From an uncultured Planctomycetales bacterium (lineage in GTDB: Bacteria; Omnitrophota; Gorgyraeia; Zapsychrales; Zapsychraceae): 64,000 nt of DNA. Positions within the stretch are counted from its first letter, which is position 1, and each line of letters opens with the position of its first letter. This document shows positions 19,837 through 56,397 of this stretch, in pieces. The notes beneath the pieces are model-generated. The model was not told the DNA's origin. It made no database searches and saw only the letters and a list, made by a program, of their open reading frames with translations. The stretch covers positions 19,648-83,647 of the forward strand of contig CAZVZR010000002.1 in assembly GCA_964630825.1 (NCBI GenBank), in the 5' to 3' direction. The translations under genes were made by a program, and so were the position numbers.

Positions 19837-22800
19837 ATGCCCAACCTGTATAGTCACGGTCAATTCCGAATGATTCCATTTAGGCAAGTAATCCTTATTT
19901 GCCTTTTTATTTTAATTATTACAACACAAAGCGAAGCTGTCACCGTTAGCGGTACCGTCTACACCGACGAAGGCACCAGCCGCATGAGCGGCGGGGTGAC
20001 GGTGCGAGTTGTCGTGGAAGGGGTTTCGGCCGGGACAGATACGACCAGCACGACCAATTGCGCTACCAATGCCGCTCCCTGCGGTGCTTACAATGTCAGT
20101 GGAGTAACTATCAACGCGACAACTAATAGTATAATCGCTTATCTGGATACTAATGGTGGCAATGTCGGGACTGTTATTACACACAGCACATCAGCTGTCT
20201 TAGACAACACAACAGGTTTTGATATTTATCAAAATCATATCGCGATTGAGATGTTTCCTAATAACGGCAATGCTAATAAATCAGCTAGCAATCCTTGGAT
20301 AGATTCCGCCAATGATGCCTGTGATTATGATAAAGATAATGATACGGATATGCCCTATCAATGCTATCAGTATTTATTGTATGGCGATAATAATATTGAA
20401 TTTTATATTTGGTCAGCATCCACGTTTTCTTGGAATTCTGCCTCAACAGCACCTAGGTTAAATGTAGATGGTGTGGATATTCGGGGGCGCCTTTTGAGAG
20501 CAACAGCTAATTTTTATGTGGTTGACCGCGGGGATTGGAATTGCAGCAATTGTACACACGATGTTTCCACAACGGATATAACAACATTCGGCAGCGGTAG
20601 CAAGGCGCATTCTATTACGACAGGGAATGCACCTTTTGGATTAGTTGTCATTGACGAAGCAGGGCAAACCGTATCGACTACTGACGAGCTTTTAATAAAT
20701 GGTAATGTTGGGATAACTGTAACCGCCGGGACTTTGTCTCTGGGGGCAAAACTTCAGGACTATGGCGACTTGACCATTGGGGCTACAGGAACTTTAACAA
20801 CAAATAATTATCAAGTAAATGTGGGGGATGATTTTGTGATTAATTCCGGTGGTGTATTTAATGCCGGCTCGGGAACAGTGAGTTTTTCTGGCTTCACAAA
20901 CACCATGGCTGATCAAACCGTTACTACCTCCGGCCAGTTATTTAATAATGTATATATTAATAATACCCAGGGATCCAGTTCCGATGATATCATTCCTACG
21001 GATGATTGGGATATTGATGGGAATTTAATCATTAATGACGGGAATTTAAATATGAGCACGAATAATAAATCTATTATCCTGGCCGGGAATTGGGTGAGAG
21101 AACCGAATACAAATCATACTTGGGCTAAGGGGACGGGTAATTCGACAGTTACTTTCGATGGCGGCAGTACATCGACGTTTTCCAATAATGGCCTTAATGC
21201 GTCAAGAGTTGATAATTCAACTTACGATTTCAATAAAGTGGACGTGACCAACAATACGACTTTAAAGCTAGTGAATGGAGAACTTGAAGTAGATGGCACC
21301 TTGACGATTGCCTCGGGCGCGACGGTGAATCTTAATGGGCAGACACTGGATCTCAATGGGACGCTCAATAATAACGGAACGTTAAAGATACAGGGAAACG
21401 AAACCGATGTGGATATCGGTGTCATGGATAATGATTCGGGGACCGTCATGTATATTGGCGACGGTAATGGGACATCAAATGTCTATGCGGTACGTAATCA
21501 CAGCGCCGGCGCTTACTATAACCTGACCATCAATGATACAAATTCTACGGTCGACACGTTTACTTTTGATGCGCAAGCAGCGATTAATGGCACGCTTACG
21601 GTTGCCAACGGAAATACACTGGGCTTAAATGGTCAGACTCTGAATATGACCGGGGCGACGTTGTCGAATTCGGGGACGATCACAATGTTTGGTTCGGAAA
21701 CAGTGACTGTTGGGACATGGGACAATGACAGCGGGACCATAGTGTATGTCGGTAACGGCGATGGAGTAGTAGATACACGCAATATTTTGAACCCATCTTC
21801 CGTTGCGGGAACAGGTGATTTTTATAATTTGAGAATAAATGATACCAATTCTACCAAAGATGTATTTGCGTTGCAGGGGGACTTGGACGTTGACGGTGAT
21901 TTAACGATATCTTCAGGGACGTTGGATGTTTCTACCAATAATTATGCCATTGTCTTAGCCGGGACGTGGTTTAATAGCGGTACATTTGCTTCCCGGAGTG
22001 GGACGGTCACTTTCAATGGGACAATAGGCCAAGGGATTACTTTTTGCAGTGCCTGCAACACGACTTCATTTAGTTCGGTTGTGCTTACCAATGCTTCGAG
22101 TAGCGGCGTGACGTTTCTTGACGGTTTTACGACAACGAACTTGACAGATCAAACAGCGGGGTCTACTGTTACGGTTGCAGCGAGCAGTACATCAACGATT
22201 TCGGGAGCAATGACTATGCAGGGAACAAGTTCAAGCCAAGTACGGCTTAAAAGCGGCACGAGCTCAACACAGTTTACGTTTGATGTTCCTGGGGTCAAAC
22301 AAAACGTTTTTAATGTCAATGTGTCTGACTCAGCAGCCAGCAGCAATGATATTGTATGCCACAGTTGTACTAACGGCGGCGGCACGGATGCAGCTCAAGC
22401 CAGCCCGCATTGGGAATTTAGCTCCATAATCAGCGGTGTTGTTTACACGGATGAAGGCACCAGCCGCATGAGCGGCGGGGTGACGGTGCGAGTTGTCGTG
22501 GAAGGGGTTTCGGCCGGGACAGATACGACCAGCACGACCAATTGCGCTACCAATGCCGCTCCCTGCGGTGCTTACAATGTCAGTGGAGTAACTATCAACG
22601 CGACAACTAATAGTATAATCGCTTATCTGGATACTAATGGTGGCAATGTCGGGACTGTTATTACACACAGCACATCAGCTGTCTTAGACAACACAACAGG
22701 TTTTGATATTTATCAAAATCATATCGCGATTGAGATGTTTCCTAATAACGGCAATGCTAATAAATCAGCTAGCAATCCTTGGATAGATTCCGCCAATGAT

Positions 22801-24945
22801 GCCTGTGATTATGATAAAGATAATGATACGGATATGCCCTATCAATGCTATCAGTATTTATTGTATGGCGATAATAATATTGAATTTTATATTTGGTCAG
22901 CATCCACGTTTTCTTGGAATTCTGCCTCAACAGCACCTAGGTTAAATGTAGATGGTGTGGATATTCGGGGGCGCCTTTTGAGAGCAACAGCTAATTTTTA
23001 TGTGGTTGACCGCGGGGATTGGAATTGCAGCAATTGTACACACGATGTTTCCACAACGGATATAACAACATTCGGCAGCGGTAGCAAGGCGCATTCTATT
23101 ACGACAGGGAATGCACCTTTTGGATTAGTTGTCATTGACGAAGCAGGGCAAACCGTATCGACTACTGACGAGCTTTTAATAAATGGTAATGTTGGGATAA
23201 CTGTAACCGCCGGGACTTTGTCTCTGGGGGCAAAACTTCAGGACTATGGCGACTTGACCATTGGGGCTACAGGAACTTTAACAACAAATAATTATCAAGT
23301 AAATGTGGGGGATGATTTTGTGATTAATTCCGGTGGTGTATTTAATGCCGGCTCGGGAACAGTGAGTTTTTCTGGCTTCACAAACACCATGGCTGATCAA
23401 ACCGTTACTACCTCCGGCCAGTTATTTAATAATGTATATATTAATAATACCCAGGGATCCAGTTCCGATGATATCATTCCTACGGATGATTGGGATATTG
23501 ATGGGAATTTAATCATTAATGACGGGAATTTAAATATGAGCACGAATAATAAATCTATTATCCTGGCCGGGAATTGGGTGAGAGAACCGAATACAAATCA
23601 TACTTGGGCTAAGGGGACGGGTAATTCGACAGTTACTTTCGATGGCGGCAGTACATCGACGTTTTCCAATAATGGCCTTAATGCGTCAAGAGTTGATAAT
23701 TCAACTTACGATTTCAATAAAGTGGACGTGACCAACAATACGACTTTAAAGCTAGTGAATGGAGAACTTGAAGTAGATGGCACCTTGACGATTGCCTCGG
23801 GCGCGACGGTGAATCTTAATGGGCAGACACTGGATCTCAATGGGACGCTCAATAATAACGGAACGTTAAAGATACAGGGAAACGAAACCGATGTGGATAT
23901 CGGTGTCATGGATAATGATTCGGGGACCGTCATGTATATTGGCGACGGTAATGGGACATCAAATGTCTATGCGGTACGTAATCACAGCGCCGGCGCTTAC
24001 TATAACCTGACCATCAATGATACAAATTCTACGGTCGACACGTTTACTTTTGATGCGCAAGCAGCGATTAATGGCACGCTTACGGTTGCCAACGGAAATA
24101 CACTGGGCTTAAATGGTCAGACTCTGAATATGACCGGGGCGACGTTGTCGAATTCGGGGACGATCACAATGTTTGGTTCGGAAACAGTGACTGTTGGGAC
24201 ATGGGACAATGACAGCGGGACCATAGTGTATGTCGGTAACGGCGATGGAGTAGTAGATACACGCAATATTTTGAACCCATCTTCCGTTGCGGGAACAGGT
24301 GATTTTTATAATTTGAGAATAAATGATACCAATTCTACCAAAGATGTATTTGCGTTGCAGGGGGACTTGGACGTTGACGGTGATTTAACGATATCTTCAG
24401 GGACGTTGGATGTTTCTACCAATAATTATGCCATTGTCTTAGCCGGGACGTGGTTTAATAGCGGTACATTTGCTTCCCGGAGTGGGACGGTCACTTTCAA
24501 TGGGACAATAGGCCAAGGGATTACTTTTTGCAGTGCCTGCAACACGACTTCATTTAGTTCGGTTGTGCTTACCAATGCTTCGAGTAGCGGCGTGACGTTT
24601 CTTGACGGTTTTACGACAACGAACTTGACAGATCAAACAGCGGGGTCTACTGTTACGGTTGCAGCGAGCAGTACATCAACGATTTCGGGGACATTGACGT
24701 TGCAGGGGACACATAGTAGTGAAATGAGACTTAAAAGTAGCAGCGGCGGAACGCAATTTACCCTTAATGTCACTGGCGGTAACCAGAAGGTCTATCATGT
24801 CAATGTGTCTGACTCAGCAGCCAGCAGCAATGATATTAATTGCCGTAGCTGTACCAACGGCGGCGGCACGGATGCAGCTCAAGCCAGCCCGCATTGGGTA
24901 TTTAGCCCGCTGGTAGGTGCCGTGATGCGGGCGGAGGATAACTGA
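19837..24945 (+). CDS. Giant (1702 aa) Asn/Thr/Gly-rich beta-helical surface protein (adhesin or S-layer-like passenger repeats). No C-terminal beta-barrel.
   Basis: N-terminal signal-like segment MIPFRQVILICLFILIITTQSEA. Repetitive GxLxLxGxxxxxG and PATR-like blocks. About 35 N-x-S/T sequons per 828-aa repeat unit. Contains two tandem 2484-bp units. Confidence 0.8.
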   Translation: MPNLYSHGQFRMIPFRQVILICLFILIITTQSEAVTVSGTVYTDEGTSRMSGGVTVRVVVEGVSAGTDTTSTTNCATNAAPCGAYNVSGVTINATTNSIIAYLDTNGGNVGTVITHSTSAVLDNTTGFDIYQNHIAIEMFPNNGNANKSASNPWIDSANDACDYDKDNDTDMPYQCYQYLLYGDNNIEFYIWSASTFSWNSASTAPRLNVDGVDIRGRLLRATANFYVVDRGDWNCSNCTHDVSTTDITTFGSGSKAHSITTGNAPFGLVVIDEAGQTVSTTDELLINGNVGITVTAGTLSLGAKLQDYGDLTIGATGTLTTNNYQVNVGDDFVINSGGVFNAGSGTVSFSGFTNTMADQTVTTSGQLFNNVYINNTQGSSSDDIIPTDDWDIDGNLIINDGNLNMSTNNKSIILAGNWVREPNTNHTWAKGTGNSTVTFDGGSTSTFSNNGLNASRVDNSTYDFNKVDVTNNTTLKLVNGELEVDGTLTIASGATVNLNGQTLDLNGTLNNNGTLKIQGNETDVDIGVMDNDSGTVMYIGDGNGTSNVYAVRNHSAGAYYNLTINDTNSTVDTFTFDAQAAINGTLTVANGNTLGLNGQTLNMTGATLSNSGTITMFGSETVTVGTWDNDSGTIVYVGNGDGVVDTRNILNPSSVAGTGDFYNLRINDTNSTKDVFALQGDLDVDGDLTISSGTLDVSTNNYAIVLAGTWFNSGTFASRSGTVTFNGTIGQGITFCSACNTTSFSSVVLTNASSSGVTFLDGFTTTNLTDQTAGSTVTVAASSTSTISGAMTMQGTSSSQVRLKSGTSSTQFTFDVPGVKQNVFNVNVSDSAASSNDIVCHSCTNGGGTDAAQASPHWEFSSIISGVVYTDEGTSRMSGGVTVRVVVEGVSAGTDTTSTTNCATNAAPCGAYNVSGVTINATTNSIIAYLDTNGGNVGTVITHSTSAVLDNTTGFDIYQNHIAIEMFPNNGNANKSASNPWIDSANDACDYDKDNDTDMPYQCYQYLLYGDNNIEFYIWSASTFSWNSASTAPRLNVDGVDIRGRLLRATANFYVVDRGDWNCSNCTHDVSTTDITTFGSGSKAHSITTGNAPFGLVVIDEAGQTVSTTDELLINGNVGITVTAGTLSLGAKLQDYGDLTIGATGTLTTNNYQVNVGDDFVINSGGVFNAGSGTVSFSGFTNTMADQTVTTSGQLFNNVYINNTQGSSSDDIIPTDDWDIDGNLIINDGNLNMSTNNKSIILAGNWVREPNTNHTWAKGTGNSTVTFDGGSTSTFSNNGLNASRVDNSTYDFNKVDVTNNTTLKLVNGELEVDGTLTIASGATVNLNGQTLDLNGTLNNNGTLKIQGNETDVDIGVMDNDSGTVMYIGDGNGTSNVYAVRNHSAGAYYNLTINDTNSTVDTFTFDAQAAINGTLTVANGNTLGLNGQTLNMTGATLSNSGTITMFGSETVTVGTWDNDSGTIVYVGNGDGVVDTRNILNPSSVAGTGDFYNLRINDTNSTKDVFALQGDLDVDGDLTISSGTLDVSTNNYAIVLAGTWFNSGTFASRSGTVTFNGTIGQGITFCSACNTTSFSSVVLTNASSSGVTFLDGFTTTNLTDQTAGSTVTVAASSTSTISGTLTLQGTHSSEMRLKSSSGGTQFTLNVTGGNQKVYHVNVSDSAASSNDINCRSCTNGGGTDAAQASPHWVFSPLVGAVMRAEDN
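19957..24924 (+). repeat. Intragenic tandem duplication of two 2484-bp units. The 2235-bp core (19972-22206) is identical to 22456-24690. The 3' ~200 bp of each unit has diverged.
   Basis: Direct comparison of the text. The track's antisense ORFs 19912-20184 and 22330-22668, and 21222-21449 and 23706-23933, are identical pairs exactly 2484 nt apart. Confidence 0.9.
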
Positions 24946-37250: not shown

Positions 37251-37335
37251 CGCAGTCCCGACATTCGCTCTGCTCAGTCGGGATCCCGACCGAACGCAAG
37301 GGAGTGTCGGGAAAGACCACAGGGTCCATTTTTAT

Positions 37336-51023: not shown

Positions 51024-51169
51024 ATGAACCCGCCACTTATGGAGCTTTGATTTTTTTAGATTTTTTTTCCTGCCGCATCAGTTTTAAATGCCTCACGGAC
51101 TTCTCTAAAAGAATTTTATGGAAGTCAGTGCGGCATGTTTCTTTCTAAATAAATTTTGTAGTAAAACAT

Positions 51170-51243
51170 GCCGAGATAGCTCAGCTAGGTAGAGCAGTGG
51201 ACTGAAAATCCATGTGTCCCCAGTTCGATCCTGGGTCTCGGCA
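51170..51243 (+). tRNA. tRNA-Phe (GAA). No encoded CCA.
   Basis: Cloverleaf by hand: acceptor GCCGAGA/TCTCGGC, D-arm GCTC..GAGC, anticodon loop CTGAAAA, T-arm CCCAG-TTCGATC-CTGGG. Followed by TTTTTT. Confidence 0.9.
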
Positions 51244-51280
51244 TTTTTTCATAATTTTTTATTATAGAGAAAAAAGGCCG

Positions 51281-51556
51281 ATGCTGATTACTACCCCAAG
51301 CATGTTTAATAAAATAGATACAGAAACGATTAAAATGAAGCTGGATCAGGCCTGCGGTATGTACCTGGCAGAGCAGGAAAAACTACGAGGATTTGCCCAG
51401 GTTATATTTAACTTGAATCATTCGATGACTTACAGAGCTTTTGATAATGTGCTCAAAAGGCTCATTGAATCCAACGATCCAAGCAGACCCCAGAAGTTAA
51501 TTGCCGAGATTGAAAAATTCGTACAAATGGCAAAAAGGTTAGACAAGAATCTTTAA
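51281..51556 (+). CDS. Hypothetical small protein (91 aa)
   Basis: MLITTPSMFNKID... The ORF begins after the tRNA. The track's longer form overlaps the tRNA and was trimmed. Confidence 0.4.
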   Translation: MLITTPSMFNKIDTETIKMKLDQACGMYLAEQEKLRGFAQVIFNLNHSMTYRAFDNVLKRLIESNDPSRPQKLIAEIEKFVQMAKRLDKNL

Positions 51557-51563
51557 AAAATGC

Positions 51564-52388
51564 ATGAGCTCACCGGCACCATTTTTCTCTGTCATAGTTC
51601 CCACCTACGATCGCGCAAAATTTCTAAAGATTGCGCTTGATTCGGTTTTATCCCAAAGTTACTCCGATTTTGAATTGATTGTCATCGATGATGGCTCTAC
51701 GGATGGTACTAAAATTTTAATTAAAGAATGTAATGACCCGCGGATTGTGTATTTCTATCAGGACAATCACGGCGTGGCGCATGCCCGCAATAGAGGATTG
51801 GAAAAAGCCACGGGAGAGTGGGTTGCGTTTTTGGATTCGGACGATCAATGGATACGGGACAAGCTTAAGAAAACGGCAGAATATATCAAAGAATTCCCAT
51901 CGGTTAAGATTTTTCACACAGAAGAAAAATGGTACCGTAACGGCAAGGTTTTGAATCAAAAAAAGAAGCATAAAAAGCCGACGGGTTTTATTTATCGCGA
52001 CGCATTGCCCATTTGTTGTATTGGGATGTCGACGTCAGTAGTTCATCGCAGTGTCTTTGATAAGATTGGGTTGTTTGATGAGTCTTTAACGGCATGCGAA
52101 GATTATGATTTCTGGTTAAGGGCGGCACATGAGTTTGAAGTAAAATTAATTCCGGAGGTCTTGACGATTAAAGATGGCGGCCGGCCGGACCAACTTTCCG
52201 CACAGCCGGGATTGGATCGTTTCCGCATCAAGGCCCTTCACAAAATGCTCTCCTCGGGGAAGTTAAATCAAGAGGAGGCGCAACTGACACAAAAATATTT
52301 GCAAGAAAAAGCCGTCGTCTACATTGAGGGCGCAAAGAAGCGGGGAAAATTTGAAGAGGCAGAGAATTATCAATGGGCACTAAAGTAA
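51564..52388 (+). CDS. Family 2 glycosyltransferase
   Basis: FFSVIVPTYDRAKFLKIALDSVLSQSYSDFELIVIDDGSTDGT. DSDD. Confidence 0.8.
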   Translation: MSSPAPFFSVIVPTYDRAKFLKIALDSVLSQSYSDFELIVIDDGSTDGTKILIKECNDPRIVYFYQDNHGVAHARNRGLEKATGEWVAFLDSDDQWIRDKLKKTAEYIKEFPSVKIFHTEEKWYRNGKVLNQKKKHKKPTGFIYRDALPICCIGMSTSVVHRSVFDKIGLFDESLTACEDYDFWLRAAHEFEVKLIPEVLTIKDGGRPDQLSAQPGLDRFRIKALHKMLSSGKLNQEEAQLTQKYLQEKAVVYIEGAKKRGKFEEAENYQWALK

Positions 52389-54130
52389 AAGCCTTTATTC
52401 TGTTGGTTGTTTTGGTGTTTCTTGCTTACGCCAATGTCTTGACGCACGGCTTTGCCGGGGATGACCACACACTTTTTGGGATTAATGATTTTTATCGTAA
52501 CCCCAATAACCTGTCTAAACTATTTTCGCCGGAGTTTATTACCCGTCCGGAAGACTTCAACGCGCAAAAGTCATTGTCACGTAATTTGTCGGTGTCGGGC
52601 TGTGTTTCCTATCGGCCGGTTACGGCGCTGTCGTTTTTTGTCGATTGTTTTATTTGGCATCTTCAACCCTTCGGTTACCATCTGACAAATATTATTCTGC
52701 ACGGTGTTATAGCGTATCTTTTGTATTGCCTGGTATTTTTATTGGTCAAGGATTCAGCGGTCGCCGTGCTGGCGGCATTATTTTTTGCGCTGCATCCCGT
52801 TCAGGCGGAGCTCATCAACAATATCGGGTACCGTTCCGACCTGATTTGCACATTGTTTTATCTCTTGGGGTTTCTATTTTATGTCCGGTGGCGCGCGGGC
52901 GAATTCAAGCGGGTGGGGTTGGTTCACGGCTGCTTCTTTATTGCTTTGTTTACCAAGGAAACGGCCGTTACGTTCCCGGCGGTCATTCTAGCTTACGAAT
53001 ATTTCTTCGGCCGGGAAAAATCTTTCAACATGATTTTACAGAAAAATAAAATTTTTTTCTCAGCTCAGGCATGTCTTTTACTGTTCTATCTTTTTATTTA
53101 TTTTTTTGTCTTCCCGAACTCCAGCCTGGCGGGAGTAAAACATTTTTCCCTGGTTGGGCAGATCCGGATTGCGCTGGGGGCAGGTTATGAATATCTTTTG
53201 GCGCTAATACTTCCCTGGAAAGTCAAAATCCTGCCGTCGTTTTACGTGCCGTCATTAGAAGGTATTCGTTTGTCCGAGATTTTGCTGTTGGGGATTTTAA
53301 TTGCTGTTTGCTGGGGCATTTTTCGAAAATGCGTTGTCCAAAAGAAAGCGGCCGCTTTCTTTGTCGCGTGGTCTTTTCTGACGTATTTGCCGACGGCAAA
53401 TTTATTCCCAGTTCCTAATCCGCTGGCGTACCGTTTTTTGTATTTGCCTTCGGTGGGATTTTTTACTTTCACTGCGATTATTTTAGGGTGGCTGCTGGCA
53501 AAATTGGACACAAAAACGAAGAAAAAGTTTTATTCTTTTCTGTTAAAAGTTACGGCTGTTGGCTTGTTAGTGGGAGTAACAATGCCGTTAAACGAGTATT
53601 ACCAAAATGACATTGCCTGGAATAAGAAAATTATTGAGGATTTCCCAGAGAGCACGTACAATTATCTTCTCTTGGCGAGCTTCTACCGGCAAAGTGGAAA
53701 ATACGATGCGGCCATTGCTTTTTTGCGGAAATATTTGGATAATAGGAGGAAAAGTTCGAGCGGTTTTGCGGAGAAGGAAGACTACGAAATCTTGACGGAA
53801 ATCGGGACCTGTTACGTCAACAACCCCGATGAAGCAATTAAATATTTTAAGCACGCGATTGATTTGAAACCTGATTACGCGCTCGCGTACGCGCAAATGG
53901 GCAAGGCGTATTTGCTCAAAGGCGACGCGGTCAAATCTTTGGAGTTGAGCCAGCGGGCGTTATTTTTGAAGAAAGATTTGTTGGAAGGTTACGCGTACGC
54001 CGTCGAAGCTGCGCTGGCGTTGGGGGACAGGGATTCGGTGAAAATATTGCTCACCCGGGCGCTCAAAGTTTACCCGCAGGAGCAGTTGTTTTTGGGGTTA
54101 AAAGCGCAGTTGGAAAAAAAGATTCATTGA
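52373..54130 (+). CDS. TMTC-like protein: N-terminal multi-TM (DUF1736/PMT-like, GT-C-type) domain plus C-terminal TPR repeats
   Basis: YRPVTALSFFVDCFIWHLQPFGYHLTNIILHG block. About 10 TM helices. C-terminal TPR-like repeats (AIKYFKHAIDLKPDYALAYAQMGKAY). Confidence 0.7.
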   Translation: MGTKVKAFILLVVLVFLAYANVLTHGFAGDDHTLFGINDFYRNPNNLSKLFSPEFITRPEDFNAQKSLSRNLSVSGCVSYRPVTALSFFVDCFIWHLQPFGYHLTNIILHGVIAYLLYCLVFLLVKDSAVAVLAALFFALHPVQAELINNIGYRSDLICTLFYLLGFLFYVRWRAGEFKRVGLVHGCFFIALFTKETAVTFPAVILAYEYFFGREKSFNMILQKNKIFFSAQACLLLFYLFIYFFVFPNSSLAGVKHFSLVGQIRIALGAGYEYLLALILPWKVKILPSFYVPSLEGIRLSEILLLGILIAVCWGIFRKCVVQKKAAAFFVAWSFLTYLPTANLFPVPNPLAYRFLYLPSVGFFTFTAIILGWLLAKLDTKTKKKFYSFLLKVTAVGLLVGVTMPLNEYYQNDIAWNKKIIEDFPESTYNYLLLASFYRQSGKYDAAIAFLRKYLDNRRKSSSGFAEKEDYEILTEIGTCYVNNPDEAIKYFKHAIDLKPDYALAYAQMGKAYLLKGDAVKSLELSQRALFLKKDLLEGYAYAVEAALALGDRDSVKILLTRALKVYPQEQLFLGLKAQLEKKIH

Positions 54131-54149
54131 AAACTAAAGCGTTAAAGAT

Positions 54150-54200
54150 TCTGCTGGCGTCCCGTTTTCTAAAGTAGAATGCGGGACTTAGCAGATTTTT
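54150..54200 (+). terminator. Rho-independent terminator (interrupted 12-bp stem)
   Basis: TCTGCTggcGTCCCG-ttttctaaagtagaatg-CGGGACttAGCAGA, then TTTTT. Confidence 0.65.
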
Positions 54201-54222
54201 CGAGAATAAATTGTTGTAATCT

Positions 54223-54295
54223 GCTGGCGTAGCTCAGTTGGTAGAGCAGCTGATTCGTAATCAGCAGGTCACCAGTTCAACTCTGGTCGCCAGCT
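54223..54295 (+). tRNA. tRNA-Thr (CGT)
   Basis: Acceptor GCTGGCG/CGCCAGC, D-arm GCTC-AGTTGGTA-GAGC, anticodon arm GCTGA-TTCGTAA-TCAGC, T-arm ACCAG-TTCAACT-CTGGT. Confidence 0.85.
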
Positions 54296-54425
54296 TTTTA
54301 AATGAACGTACAGAGCAACGCATTCGCCCCTAGGCGACCTCTAAAAATTAATGTACCTAGGGGTTACTCGCCTAAGTAGTCCCGAGCGCTTTAAAAAATA
54401 AGATCGAGGGCGAGGGATAATGCGT

Positions 54426-54455
54426 GGGTCAGGAGTTCGACTCTCCTCGTCGGCT
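54426..54455 (+). other. tRNA-like 3' fragment: variable-loop, T-arm and acceptor 3' strand with no matching 5' half
   Basis: GGGTC-AGGAG-TTCGACT-CTCCT-CGTCGGC-T has the same layout as the 3' third of the adjacent tRNA-Thr. I could not find the complementary GCCGACG 5' strand within 200 nt. Confidence 0.4.
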
Positions 54456-54483
54456 TGTTTTTCTTGTTGGTTAATAATTGTGA

Positions 54484-56397
54484 ATGAATCAACCTCAACA
54501 CAACCTTCTTCTTTCCCGCAAATTTTTAATCCTCATTGTTTTTGTTTTGGGCTTTTGCGCCTACTCGTTTAATTTAACCGGTAAATTTAAACTTGTCGAC
54601 GACCAAGTCTCGATTGTCAAAAATGAGACCGTCAAAAATTTGACGGCCGCCAACGTCAATCAAATTTTCCATTCCTCGTTTTTCGGCGACAAGGAGAAGG
54701 CTTACTACCGGCCGTTGGTTCTGTTGTCGTTCGCGCTGGAATACCGTTTTTTCGGCCCGGATCCGTTTTATTTTTACTTGACCAATATTTTACTTCACGT
54801 TTTTAATGCCCTTTTACTTTTTTTTGCCGTTGAGGCACTGACGAAACGAACTTTGCCCGCCTTCTGGGTTGCGCTTCTTTTTGTCATTCATCCTGTCCAT
54901 TGGGAAGCTGTGGCCAACATTGCCGGCCGTTCAATTTTACTGTGTGCTTTTGGGTATTTCGCGGCCTTTTTATTCTTTGTAAAGTTTGACCAGGAACCGG
55001 AAAAAAAGAAATACCTGCTTCTTTCTTTGTTGGGGTTTGCGTGGGCGTTGCTTAGCAAAGAGTCCGGCGTAACGTTTTTGCTGATTCTGCTCAGTTACGT
55101 TTTATTTTTCGAATCATCCTCGGGGATTAAAGGAATTTTTTCTAAAGCCCTGAACCGCCTTTGGCCGTATTTGATTATTTTCCTTGGGTACATGGCAACC
55201 CGACGGTCACTGGGCATTGTTAAGATTTATTACTGGGAAAATTATTGGCAGATGTTTTTAGGGGTGGCCACTTTTTTGCGGGGGGTGCTCACGTACTTGC
55301 GGCTGATTGTTTTGCCCTACGATTTGCATTTTGAGCGCTCGATCGCGTATTTTTTCCGGCCTAACGACCCGGAGCTTATTTGGACTTTTATTTTTTACGG
55401 ACTCTTGCTTGCCTTGCTGGTAAGGCGAAGAAAAAGCTTCTCGCCGGTACAAAAGTTTTTTTTGGCGTGGTTTTGCCTGGATTTAATCCTGGTTGCCCAG
55501 GTTATCCCGGTTAAGTTTCAGCAATTTTACGCGGCGCTCTTTGAGCATTTTCTTTACATTCCACTCGCGGGGATATTGGCCTTTGCTGTTTTCACGGTTG
55601 AAAAACTTTGGGCAAGCCCAAAACGACGCGGGCTTTTCTCACGCCAAAGCTTGGCAGTGCTCGTCGCCGGTTTTTGTTCCTTTTTATTTGTAACGAGCAT
55701 CACGCAGAGCATTTACGCCGCCAATGAAGTGGCCATGCTCAAGCGAACGTTGGATTTTGCTCCTTACAGTTTGCGTGTCCGGCGGTCGTACGCGTTTACG
55801 TTTGTTAAAGACGGTAATTATAAAGAAGCGGAACGGCAATACCGCTTGGCCTTGGACGCCGAGCCGTGGGATGCCGCCGCCCGCATCGGCTTAGGGAAAA
55901 CCCTTTGCGACCAGGACCGGTATTGGGAAGGGATTGCCGAATACGATAAAGTCCACGATGCCGGCGACTTAACCGAGATGCTCAAGAAAAATAAGCGTTT
56001 GGCTTACGGCATCCTCATCGACAAATACAAAAATAAAATTAACCAGGAGCCGCAGAATGCCGCACTTTATTACAGTTTGGGTGTTATGTACTCTAAAACT
56101 GATAAAATGATGGATGCCCTTGCCAATTACAAAATTGCCGTCGATCTTGACCCAACTCACACGGATGCTTTATTTAATTTGGCGTCGAGCTATGAAGCCT
56201 TGGGTCGGCTGCCCGAGGCAGCCGGTTATTACGAACAGATGCTTGCGGTTAAAAAATCGCGGGATTATCTCGATTACCACGCGTATCAGCATTTGGGAAA
56301 GATTTATCAAATTCTCGGCGACGAAGAAAGGGCAAAGGATTATAGTAAGAAGGCCAAAGAATTGGAGGGGGTCGTTCTTCCAAAGACAAAACAATGA
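54484..56397 (+). CDS. TMTC-like protein, paralogue 2 (multi-TM DUF1736/PMT-like domain plus TPR repeats)
   Basis: YYRPLVLLSFALEYRFFGPDPFYFYLTNILLH aligns with the corresponding block of the 52373 gene. C-terminal TPRs (ALYYSLGVMYSKTDKMMDALANYKIAVDLDP). Confidence 0.7.
   Translation: MNQPQHNLLLSRKFLILIVFVLGFCAYSFNLTGKFKLVDDQVSIVKNETVKNLTAANVNQIFHSSFFGDKEKAYYRPLVLLSFALEYRFFGPDPFYFYLTNILLHVFNALLLFFAVEALTKRTLPAFWVALLFVIHPVHWEAVANIAGRSILLCAFGYFAAFLFFVKFDQEPEKKKYLLLSLLGFAWALLSKESGVTFLLILLSYVLFFESSSGIKGIFSKALNRLWPYLIIFLGYMATRRSLGIVKIYYWENYWQMFLGVATFLRGVLTYLRLIVLPYDLHFERSIAYFFRPNDPELIWTFIFYGLLLALLVRRRKSFSPVQKFFLAWFCLDLILVAQVIPVKFQQFYAALFEHFLYIPLAGILAFAVFTVEKLWASPKRRGLFSRQSLAVLVAGFCSFLFVTSITQSIYAANEVAMLKRTLDFAPYSLRVRRSYAFTFVKDGNYKEAERQYRLALDAEPWDAAARIGLGKTLCDQDRYWEGIAEYDKVHDAGDLTEMLKKNKRLAYGILIDKYKNKINQEPQNAALYYSLGVMYSKTDKMMDALANYKIAVDLDPTHTDALFNLASSYEALGRLPEAAGYYEQMLAVKKSRDYLDYHAYQHLGKIYQILGDEERAKDYSKKAKELEGVVLPKTKQ

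Follow-up and report, generated by a model that had tools for sequence, protein, structure and literature searches.

A probable remnant of a second tRNA-Thr(CGT) gene at a tRNA-turnover hot spot in an uncultured Omnitrophota bacterium

The 64,000-nucleotide (nt) stretch analysed here, referred to as the window throughout, comes from contig CAZVZR010000002.1 (assembly GCA_964630825.1, positions 19,648 to 83,647 of the forward strand) of an uncultured bacterium assigned by GTDB to the Omnitrophota. ARAGORN and Rfam call only two tRNA genes in it, a tRNA-Phe(GAA) and an intact, presumably functional tRNA-Thr(CGT), the second of which ends 189 nt before gene B, a gene for a TPR/PMT_2-like membrane protein. 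Within these 189 nt lies an incomplete and interrupted second tRNA-Thr(CGT) sequence, hereafter the relic (Table 1). We estimate at roughly 70% the probability that the relic is a non-functional pseudo-tRNA, the remainder of a second tRNA-Thr(CGT) gene at a hot spot of tRNA turnover.

Table 1. Features between the tRNA-Phe gene and gene B, in window coordinates
Feature	Positions	Strand	Basis or remark
tRNA-Phe(GAA), left landmark	51169..51244	+	ARAGORN and Rfam
GCCGATG, 7-nt putative remnant of an ancestral tRNA-Thr 5′ acceptor strand	51277..51283	+	Speculative
Variable Phe-to-Thr segment: small open reading frame (ORF), GT2 glycosyltransferase, TPR/TMTC-like paralogue A	51284..54130	+	Pfam
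GT2 glycosyltransferase gene in the variable segment	51564..52388	+	Pfam
Gene A, TPR/TMTC-like paralogue	52373..54130	+	Pfam
Terminator-like hairpin 3′ of gene A, then TTTTT	54145..54200	+	Fold, −28.4 kcal/mol
Miniature tRNA-Thr 5′ fragment: TCT leader and positions 1–8 (GCTGGCGT)	54150..54160	+	Exact copy of 54220–54230
Intact tRNA-Thr(CGT)	54223..54295	+	ARAGORN; Rfam tRNA, 71.6 bits; alignment with 67 homologues
Spacer TTTTAAATGAACGTAC, 16 nt, intact gene to relic	54296..54311	+	Read from sequence
Relic part 1, tRNA-Thr(CGT) positions 21–35	54312..54326	+	Repeat search, nhmmer, spliced alignment
91-nt insertion between anticodon bases G35 and T36	54327..54417	+	Two hairpins, no flanking duplication
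Relic part 2, tRNA-Thr(CGT) positions 36–73	54418..54455	+	nhmmer, E = 1.7e-4
Gene B, TPR/PMT_2-like membrane protein, right landmark	54484..56397	+	Starts 28 nt past the relic

Identity of the relic

An initial annotation of this DNA had noticed an orphan tRNA 3′ fragment for which no 5′ half was found. The variable loop, T arm and acceptor 3′ strand that it described are real (54426–54454), but part of the 5′ half is there as well: positions 21–35 are present and only positions 1–20 are missing. This first part emerged from a repeat search, in which AGAGCAACGCATTCG parallels AGAGCAGCTGATTCG of the intact tRNA, and it comprises the 3′ strand of the D stem, the 5′ strand of the anticodon stem and the first four loop bases, TTCG. 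The second part reads TAA-TGCGT-GGGTC-AGGAG-TTCGACT-CTCCT-CGTCGGC-T, where GGGTC is the variable loop, AGGAG and CTCCT form the T arm, CGTCGGC is the acceptor 3′ strand and the last T is the discriminator, and it is matched along its whole length by an nhmmer profile built from 67 Omnitrophota tRNA-Thr genes. Both stems of the relic pair perfectly. A spliced alignment returned the same two blocks (15/15 for the first), using as query an idealised sequence made from the fragment itself plus a canonical 5′ end, so that its 53/53 match sets the block boundaries only.

Independent identity comes from other genomes. Once joined, the 53 nt of the relic are identical at 45–47 positions to the intact tRNA-Thr(CGT) of other Omnitrophota (for example, at the related loci L048, L041, L037 and L029) and of the metagenome contig L085, as against 39/53 for the neighbouring intact gene, from which the relic differs in the anticodon stem, the T stem and the acceptor. 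In an alignment of 67 loci, tRNA-Thr acceptors are mainly of two types, GCTGGCG/CGCCAGC and GCCGACG/CGTCGGC, which differ at two compensated transitions (U3-A70/G5-C68 versus C3-G70/A5-U68). The intact window gene belongs to the first type and has the anticodon stem GCTGA/TCAGC; the relic belongs to the second, in the form GCCGAYG/CGTCGGC, which is common in Omnitrophota. Furthermore, a 28-mer of the relic (54427–54454) recurs exactly at the 3′ end of an intact tRNA-Thr(CGT) on L085, the one match in exact scans of metagenomes, with none in viral contigs and none in representative genomes. On the strength of its higher identity to other tRNA-Thr(CGT) genes than to its neighbour, and of the shared 28-mer, the relic is a real tRNA-Thr(CGT) allele and no recent copy of the adjacent gene.

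The 91-nt insertion

Downstream of the intact tRNA, the initial annotation had described a segment with nested inverted repeats. These are present, as CCCCTAGG/CCTAGGGG (54327–54334 and 54356–54363) and AGGCGA/TCGCCT, and the segment that holds them is the 91-nt insertion that separates G35 from T36 inside the anticodon of the relic. The insert folds as two hairpins with GC stems and AT loops, closed by the anticodon stem. No other copy of it was found in the window or in the first 84 related loci (L001–L084). The hairpin inserts at L027:3269 and L034:5726 share with it both the G35|T36 site and the left-end motif C(A)CC..GGCGAC, and no others in a tRNA context do; the motif has 28 further occurrences in 1.9 Mb, all of them outside tRNA context.

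Partial tRNA genes in related loci

Syntenic loci were gathered by exact protein look-up (L001–L004) and by a scan of representative genomes (L005–L084). The comparison with relatives that had been proposed at the outset shows that the order tRNA-Phe(GAA), tRNA-Thr(CGT), TPR gene is conserved across 80 related Omnitrophota loci and present in most of the loci gathered. In 12 loci (L001 and 11 others), the intact tRNA-Thr ends at most ~61 nt before the start of the tblastn match to the TPR gene; in L001 this gap, read from the sequence, is ~13 nt, and the called gene overlaps the tRNA in L001–L003. The relic occupies the slot where the native tRNA-Thr normally sits, and L009 and L053 share the layout of the window, with a 3′ fragment adjoining the TPR gene and the intact tRNA further upstream. 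Because it sits in this conserved slot, directly before the TPR gene, the relic is most likely the former resident gene and thus the older of the two copies.

Across all loci, nhmmer recovered 22 partial tRNA-Thr copies at E ≤ 1 (E-values that refer to ~1 Mb of searched sequence), all of them on the tRNA strand and none on the opposite one. At least one is present in 16 of the 67 loci with an intact tRNA-Thr. Pieces that start at tRNA positions 1–3 all lie upstream of the intact gene, and pieces that end at position 73 all lie downstream. Similar partial copies of tRNA-Phe are found in L026, L028, L032, L040 and L072.

Several of these partial copies are split at fixed tRNA positions by hairpins of 40–55 nt that have GC stems and AT-rich loops. 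The splits lie after G15 (L012, L014, L023 and L027), after G19 (L017, L023 and L080), at 24|25 (L027), at 35|36 (the window, L034 and L027) and around positions 48–53 (L009 and L027). When the inserts are removed, the leftover pieces are 26/26 to 72/73 identical to the functional tRNA. An interrupted copy is the sole tRNA-Thr(CGT) in none of the 67 loci. A literature search found nothing specific on tRNA fragments or hairpin insertions in Omnitrophota.

Some loci are considerably more elaborate. L027:3046–4122 (JAHFFX010000065.1, Omnitrophota nzgw301) holds four nested tRNA-Thr(CGT) copies, with the acceptors GCTGGCG, GCCGACG, GCTGGCG and then the intact GCCGACG, in which the outer copies are each divided by hairpins plus the next copy; once the inner layers are masked, the five blocks of layer 2 add up to 72/73 identity, on a contig with a coverage of only ~3x. 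L014:1917–2181 has a full-length pseudo tRNA-Thr 16 nt past the intact gene, its D loop filled with four tandem hairpins of ~45–50 nt, each ending in CAG, with stems that differ but stay complementary and AT-rich loops that are similar. The 16-nt spacer between its intact and interrupted copies, TTTAAATATCATACAT, is similar to that of the window. In both L014 and L027, copies within one locus have an identical anticodon arm yet a different acceptor type, which suggests mosaic genes formed by intra-tRNA recombination. Finally, in L039:3526–3779 (on the complete chromosome OY759724.1) and L079:2187–2430, the intact tRNA-Thr is separated from a repeated T-arm-and-acceptor fragment by ~140 nt of homologous sequence with several hairpins, and the two loci share the motif GC-TTTT-RGGGTKACAG; the L039 repeat extends into the trailer, which points to a tandem duplication.

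A hairpin with the stem base TCCCGAC..GTCGGGA is found phylum-wide, often paired with CTCCGAC..GTCGGAG and sometimes nested within itself. It occurs as one doublet in the window (37256–37312) and upstream of tRNAs in L012, L017, L023, L080 and L001, and these hairpin 7-mers are ~2.8-fold enriched within 400 nt of tRNA genes. The family may be a repeat of the repetitive extragenic palindromic (REP) kind.

Integrases and cargo at tRNA genes

Tyrosine integrases abut tRNAs or tRNA fragments in L061, L072, L086, L087 and L091. In L072, a tyrosine integrase of 345 amino acids (PF00589, E = 3.6e-29) is followed 140 nt on by a tRNA-Phe fragment of positions 31–73, which starts in the anticodon loop. 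In L061, the integrase gene ends 23 nt before the intact tRNA-Thr(CGT). This protein has more than 2,000 homologues, the named matches being mostly from Omnitrophota and many on short contigs, and in the three places examined the genes of this type end 3–24 nt before an intact tRNA-Gln, tRNA-Lys or tRNA-Met. The family consists of short tyrosine integrases of ~200–275 amino acids (L061:61–684, L086:1351–5701, L087:5001–5927 and L091:2227–2940).

In L086, the displaced 5′ fragment of the tRNA (positions 1–38, 92% identical) is found 4.2 kb upstream, where it marks the boundary of an element with cargo. This displaced 5′ half, together with the integrase stop codons 3–24 nt 5′ of the tRNA, argues that these elements replace the 5′ half of the tRNA and not the usual 3′ part. 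In L023, L048, L058 and L083, tRNA-Thr 5′ fragments that break off at the anticodon loop, with small cargo genes behind them, fit the L086 type. The variable regions of related loci carry methyltransferases, GT2, ORF6N, a Gp49/HTH pair, an ECF sigma factor and DUF2059 as cargo; no integrase or transposase is among the 25 Pfam families listed (of 34 matched) for 24 of their small cargo ORFs. In Prochlorococcus, repeated integration leaves islands beside tRNAs with scattered partial tRNAs and degraded elements (bioRxiv 10.1101/2020.12.28.424599), and the Omnitrophota pattern matches this published picture of tRNA-adjacent islands.

Sequences upstream of the intact gene

Ahead of tRNA-Thr, a terminator arm with the appearance of a tRNA 5′ end had been pointed out. 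The 11-mer in question, TCTGCTGGCGT, is indeed exact in both places: its first copy is the 5′ arm of the terminator-like hairpin, and its second consists of a 3-nt leader and tRNA-Thr positions 1–8. Local 11-mer repeats as such are no rarity, numbering 5 in the window against 2.1 ± 1.5 expected. We consider this one to be more than chance because it covers the tRNA 5′ end and is directly followed by a TCCCG...CGGGA hairpin, as are the 5′ tRNA fragments of other loci. Within the terminator hairpin, whose outer 5′ arm is the 11-mer, the inner stem GTCCCG..CGGGAC encloses an AT-rich loop and resembles the TCCCGAC..GTCGGGA hairpins 3′ of the tRNA 5′ fragments in L012, L017, L023, L027 and L080.

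The variable segment between the two tRNA genes is missing from L001–L004, where tRNA-Phe and tRNA-Thr adjoin, and amounts to ~3 kb of extra sequence in the window. At its left edge, GCCGATG sits 32 nt past tRNA-Phe, where the usual Phe-Thr spacing in related loci is 12–60 nt, and it is a genuine acceptor type, paired with CGTCGGC in L014 and L059. Speculatively, this heptamer may derive from the old gene as its 5′ acceptor strand, in which case 51284–54311 would be one insertion into that gene.

Other features of the window were observed in passing. The start of the small ORF at 51212 (ORF 51212–51556) falls inside tRNA-Phe, and its true start is probably the ATG at 51281, within GCCGATG, or the next ATG downstream. 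Hairpins precede both window tRNA genes (51131–51173 and 54190–54225), with a 3′ arm formed by the leader and the first 3–4 tRNA bases and with similar, AT-rich loops of 20–23 nt (TTTCTAAATAAATTTTGTAGTA and TTTCGAGAATAAATTGTTGT). Elsewhere, the ORF at 19837–24945 (1702 amino acids) contains a 100%-identical tandem duplication at 19948–24900 with a period of 2484 nt, which is either a very recent internal doubling of an 828-amino-acid repeat or an assembly artefact.

A former resident gene at a hot spot

The arrangement in the window needs at least two events of at least two kinds. We propose that a 91-nt two-hairpin element inserted between G35 and T36 of a resident tRNA-Thr(CGT) of the GCCGAYG/CGTCGGC type, and that a rearrangement put a different, intact tRNA-Thr(CGT) allele, with 16 nt of its trailer, directly upstream, removing positions 1–20 of the old gene. 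The ~3 kb with the glycosyltransferase and TPR genes may have come with the replacement allele, and the 11-nt 5′ copy in the upstream terminator, a 5′ fragment with a hairpin behind it, would be one more small trace of this turnover. More broadly, the tRNA-Phe/tRNA-Thr/TPR site would be a phylum-wide hot spot, where tRNA genes are disrupted and replaced time and again by tyrosine-integrase elements and small hairpin insertions, with partial copies as the residue.

The initial annotation had read the partial copy as a possible attachment-site (att) scar of an integrative element. Of this, an old recombination footprint stands, given the recurrent partial copies and the integrases at tRNAs of relatives; a simple attL/attR pair does not, as the two copies are different alleles, 16 nt apart, and one of them carries the 91-nt insertion. 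What such a scar would leave is in part seen here: the relic is a co-oriented partial copy (positions 21–73) downstream of an intact gene with the same anticodon. Its start at position 21, in the 3′ strand of the D stem, would agree with a crossover in the anticodon loop and attP homology that extended 5′ of it, and the sole break in its anticodon loop is the 91-nt insertion.

Several observations weigh against this account. No integrase is found in the window: tblastn with XerD, lambda Int and six Omnitrophota integrases yielded no match better than E = 0.06, also when the search was repeated with integrases found in this analysis. Nor was an integrase found within ~6 kb in 83 of 85 sequences (the 84 loci and the window), that is, in all but L061 and L072. 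An identical att core common to the relic and the intact gene is lacking, and only 16 nt separate the two; their identity of 39/53 falls short of a near-identical core repeat, a mismatch that an old event, or one in several steps, might explain. The integrase family met most often in these Omnitrophota sequences would give rise to 5′ fragments upstream, as opposed to the 3′ fragment downstream that the relic is. No duplication flanks the 91-nt insertion; insertion by a tyrosine or serine recombinase would leave a duplicated overlap, and the insertion was therefore not made by conservative site-specific recombination. The interval from 51.3 to 54.3 kb has no compositional signal of foreign origin, and an orthologue of gene A is found 3′ of tRNA-Thr instead in 18 loci, which makes the ancestral gene order in the lineage of the window uncertain. 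GCCGATG is only 7 nt long, may be due to chance and overlaps a likely ATG start codon. Lastly, all comparison sequences are metagenome assemblies, and the nearest orthologues of the flanking TPR/PMT_2-like protein are only ~43% identical, so that the events cannot be dated or ordered.

Alternative explanations

The alternative that survives best, although we consider it unlikely, dispenses with integrases: DNA with tRNA genes on it would have been duplicated, or have undergone illegitimate (homology-facilitated) recombination, and small hairpins of the REP or miniature inverted-repeat transposable element kind, with a preference for the loops of tRNA-gene hairpins, would then have inserted. 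It is these hairpin elements that would drive the pattern. The direct repeats in L039 and L034 hold the tRNA 3′ part plus its trailer, as tandem duplication gives, and in L080 the leader is duplicated too. The insertions lack att duplications and fall at the fixed positions 15|16, 19|20, 24|25, 35|36 and 48–53, the four L014 hairpins share their CAG ends, and the TCCCGAC..GTCGGGA motifs, enriched as they are near tRNAs, also form doublets away from them, as at 37256–37312 of the window. Against this, the relic differs in allele from its neighbour, so that there was no recent local duplication, and integrases are demonstrably active at tRNAs in the phylum. The 91-nt insert is single-copy, unlike an active repeat family, and neither a RAYT nor an IS200/IS605 TnpA turned up in the 64-kb window, the extent of a survey that included no search aimed at Y1 transposases.

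It is quite improbable that the relic has been kept as a useful RNA or DNA signal, such as a tRNA-like processing site, a terminator or attenuator before the TPR gene, or a tRNA-mimic regulator. A tRNA 3′ part does lie just 5′ of the TPR gene in many lineages, but any tRNA insertion leaves the 3′ part by the gene, and this position needs no selection. The relic stems are intact, its T arm and acceptor strand followed by the T-rich TTGTTTTTC score as terminator-like, and the GCUGGCG of the intact tRNA could, as read from the sequence, pair with the CGUCGGC of the relic through two G-U pairs; yet fragment boundaries and lengths vary from locus to locus, the insert sequence is not conserved, and the fold of 54296–54460 is unremarkable next to shuffled sequence (z = −1.0). 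No Rfam family reaches its threshold there: hits to YrlA (14.5 bits against a gathering score of 69, E = 4.5) and, on the minus strand, to glmS (18 bits against 37) were treated as chance. With an incomplete cloverleaf, a fold like that of shuffled sequence, no RNA family match and fragment boundaries that vary between loci, a present function is unsupported, and most likely the relic does nothing today other than help to make up the spacer or 5′ leader that separates tRNA-Thr from the TPR gene. Its place in that leader, if any, may be incidental.

The initial annotation had also entertained a structured RNA of an uncommon kind, or else an atypical or permuted tRNA, and we regard a functional tRNA that is intron-containing, split with its 5′ half in trans, or permuted as the least probable explanation. 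With the 91 nt taken out, positions 21–73 are intact, the anticodon stem can form a three-way junction around the insert, and the same site is interrupted in three lineages. Positions 1–20 are absent, however, and nhmmer found neither a second copy of the relic nor a second 5′ half in the window. Within 54296–54483, ARAGORN and Rfam report no tRNA even at permissive thresholds, which disposes of a standard tRNA gene as well; ARAGORN calls a tRNA-Thr(CGT) only after the 91 nt are removed and 20 canonical 5′ bases are added. Nor is this a transfer-messenger RNA (tmRNA), with none reported by ARAGORN and no Rfam tmRNA match up to E = 10. An intact isoacceptor lies 16 nt away.

Intron types fare no better. 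Like bacterial group I introns, such as that of tRNA-Leu(UAA), the insertion interrupts a bacterial tRNA gene in its anticodon loop. Even the shortest group I introns exceed ~200 nt, have a conserved P3–P8 core and take a U at the 5′ splice site and a G at the 3′ end; the insert is 91 nt long, follows G35, ends in A and has no Rfam intron match, and its 5′ exon is incomplete. In bulge-helix-bulge introns, both splice sites lie in 3-nt bulges with a 4-bp helix between them, and the predicted fold has no such bulges at the 5′ junction (54326|54327); by manual pairing, TTCGCCC (54323–54329) can pair with GGGCGAG (54408–54414), which would place this junction within a helix. Archaeal tRNA genes in pieces, whether interrupted by bulge-helix-bulge introns, split or permuted, resemble the Omnitrophota cases in having several short structured inserts whose removal restores a perfect tRNA. 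They differ in that the Omnitrophota copies lack the bulge-helix-bulge, are incomplete and pseudogene-like, and always stand beside an uninterrupted gene. We know of no splicing endonuclease in this bacterium.

Comparison with known systems

Among known systems, the att remnants of integrases and the tycheposons of Prochlorococcus (bioRxiv 10.1101/2020.12.28.424599) come with a co-oriented partial tRNA beside an intact gene of the same anticodon, with variable cargo by the tRNA (glycosyltransferase, TPR and methyltransferase genes, toxin-antitoxin pairs), and with recurring fragments whose integrases are degraded or missing, and all of this is seen here as well. The junctions in relatives, in the anticodon loop and the T loop, and the intact, integrase-bearing examples L072 and L086 also fit. 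By contrast, the window has neither an integrase nor an identical core, an 'element' of 16 nt between different alleles, and in the relic an extra insertion without duplicated overlap.

The hairpins resemble REP and REPIN sequences, mobilized by RAYT, and the hairpin miniatures of IS200/IS605. Shared features are short intergenic hairpins with GC stems, often paired; a GTAG, GCAG or GGAG ahead of the TCCCGA(C/G) hairpins; a defined short target that is not duplicated on insertion; and an apparent preference for DNA that is foldable when single-stranded. REPs within one genome are near-identical, unlike the Omnitrophota hairpins, in which stems vary between copies and the AT-rich loops are similar, and the window insert is single-copy. 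To our knowledge, REPIN insertion inside tRNA-gene loops has not been described.

A wider generalization is conceivable, if doubtful. Omnitrophota might carry non-coding hairpin elements of 40–90 nt, single or paired and built of GC stems and AT-rich loops, that insert into tRNA-gene loops (between 15|16 and 19|20 of the D loop, between 35|36 of the anticodon, and in the variable loop or T arm) and into the loops of one another without target duplication, with one sub-family specific to the tRNA-Thr(CGT) anticodon and the 91-nt insert as a member of it. Were this so, such elements, together with incoming replacement tRNA copies, would yield nested 'Russian-doll' tRNA genes of the kind seen in L027. 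We know of no described mobile element that targets tRNA genes in this way, nor of a mutational process of single-stranded DNA of such a kind.

Significance

As an isolated feature, the scar in the window is ordinary; the position-specific hairpin insertions and the nested copies in relatives are unexplained and mildly novel. For annotation, the relic is a pseudo-tRNA that should neither be counted as a gene nor be mistaken for a new RNA. For genome evolution, the site represents a conserved hot spot in an uncultured phylum, at which cell-surface and small cargo genes are swapped and tRNA genes are overwritten. If the hairpins are a mobile family aimed at tRNA-gene loops, they would provide both a useful marker of gene flow among Omnitrophota and a new example of essential genes that are parasitized and then rescued by replacement copies.

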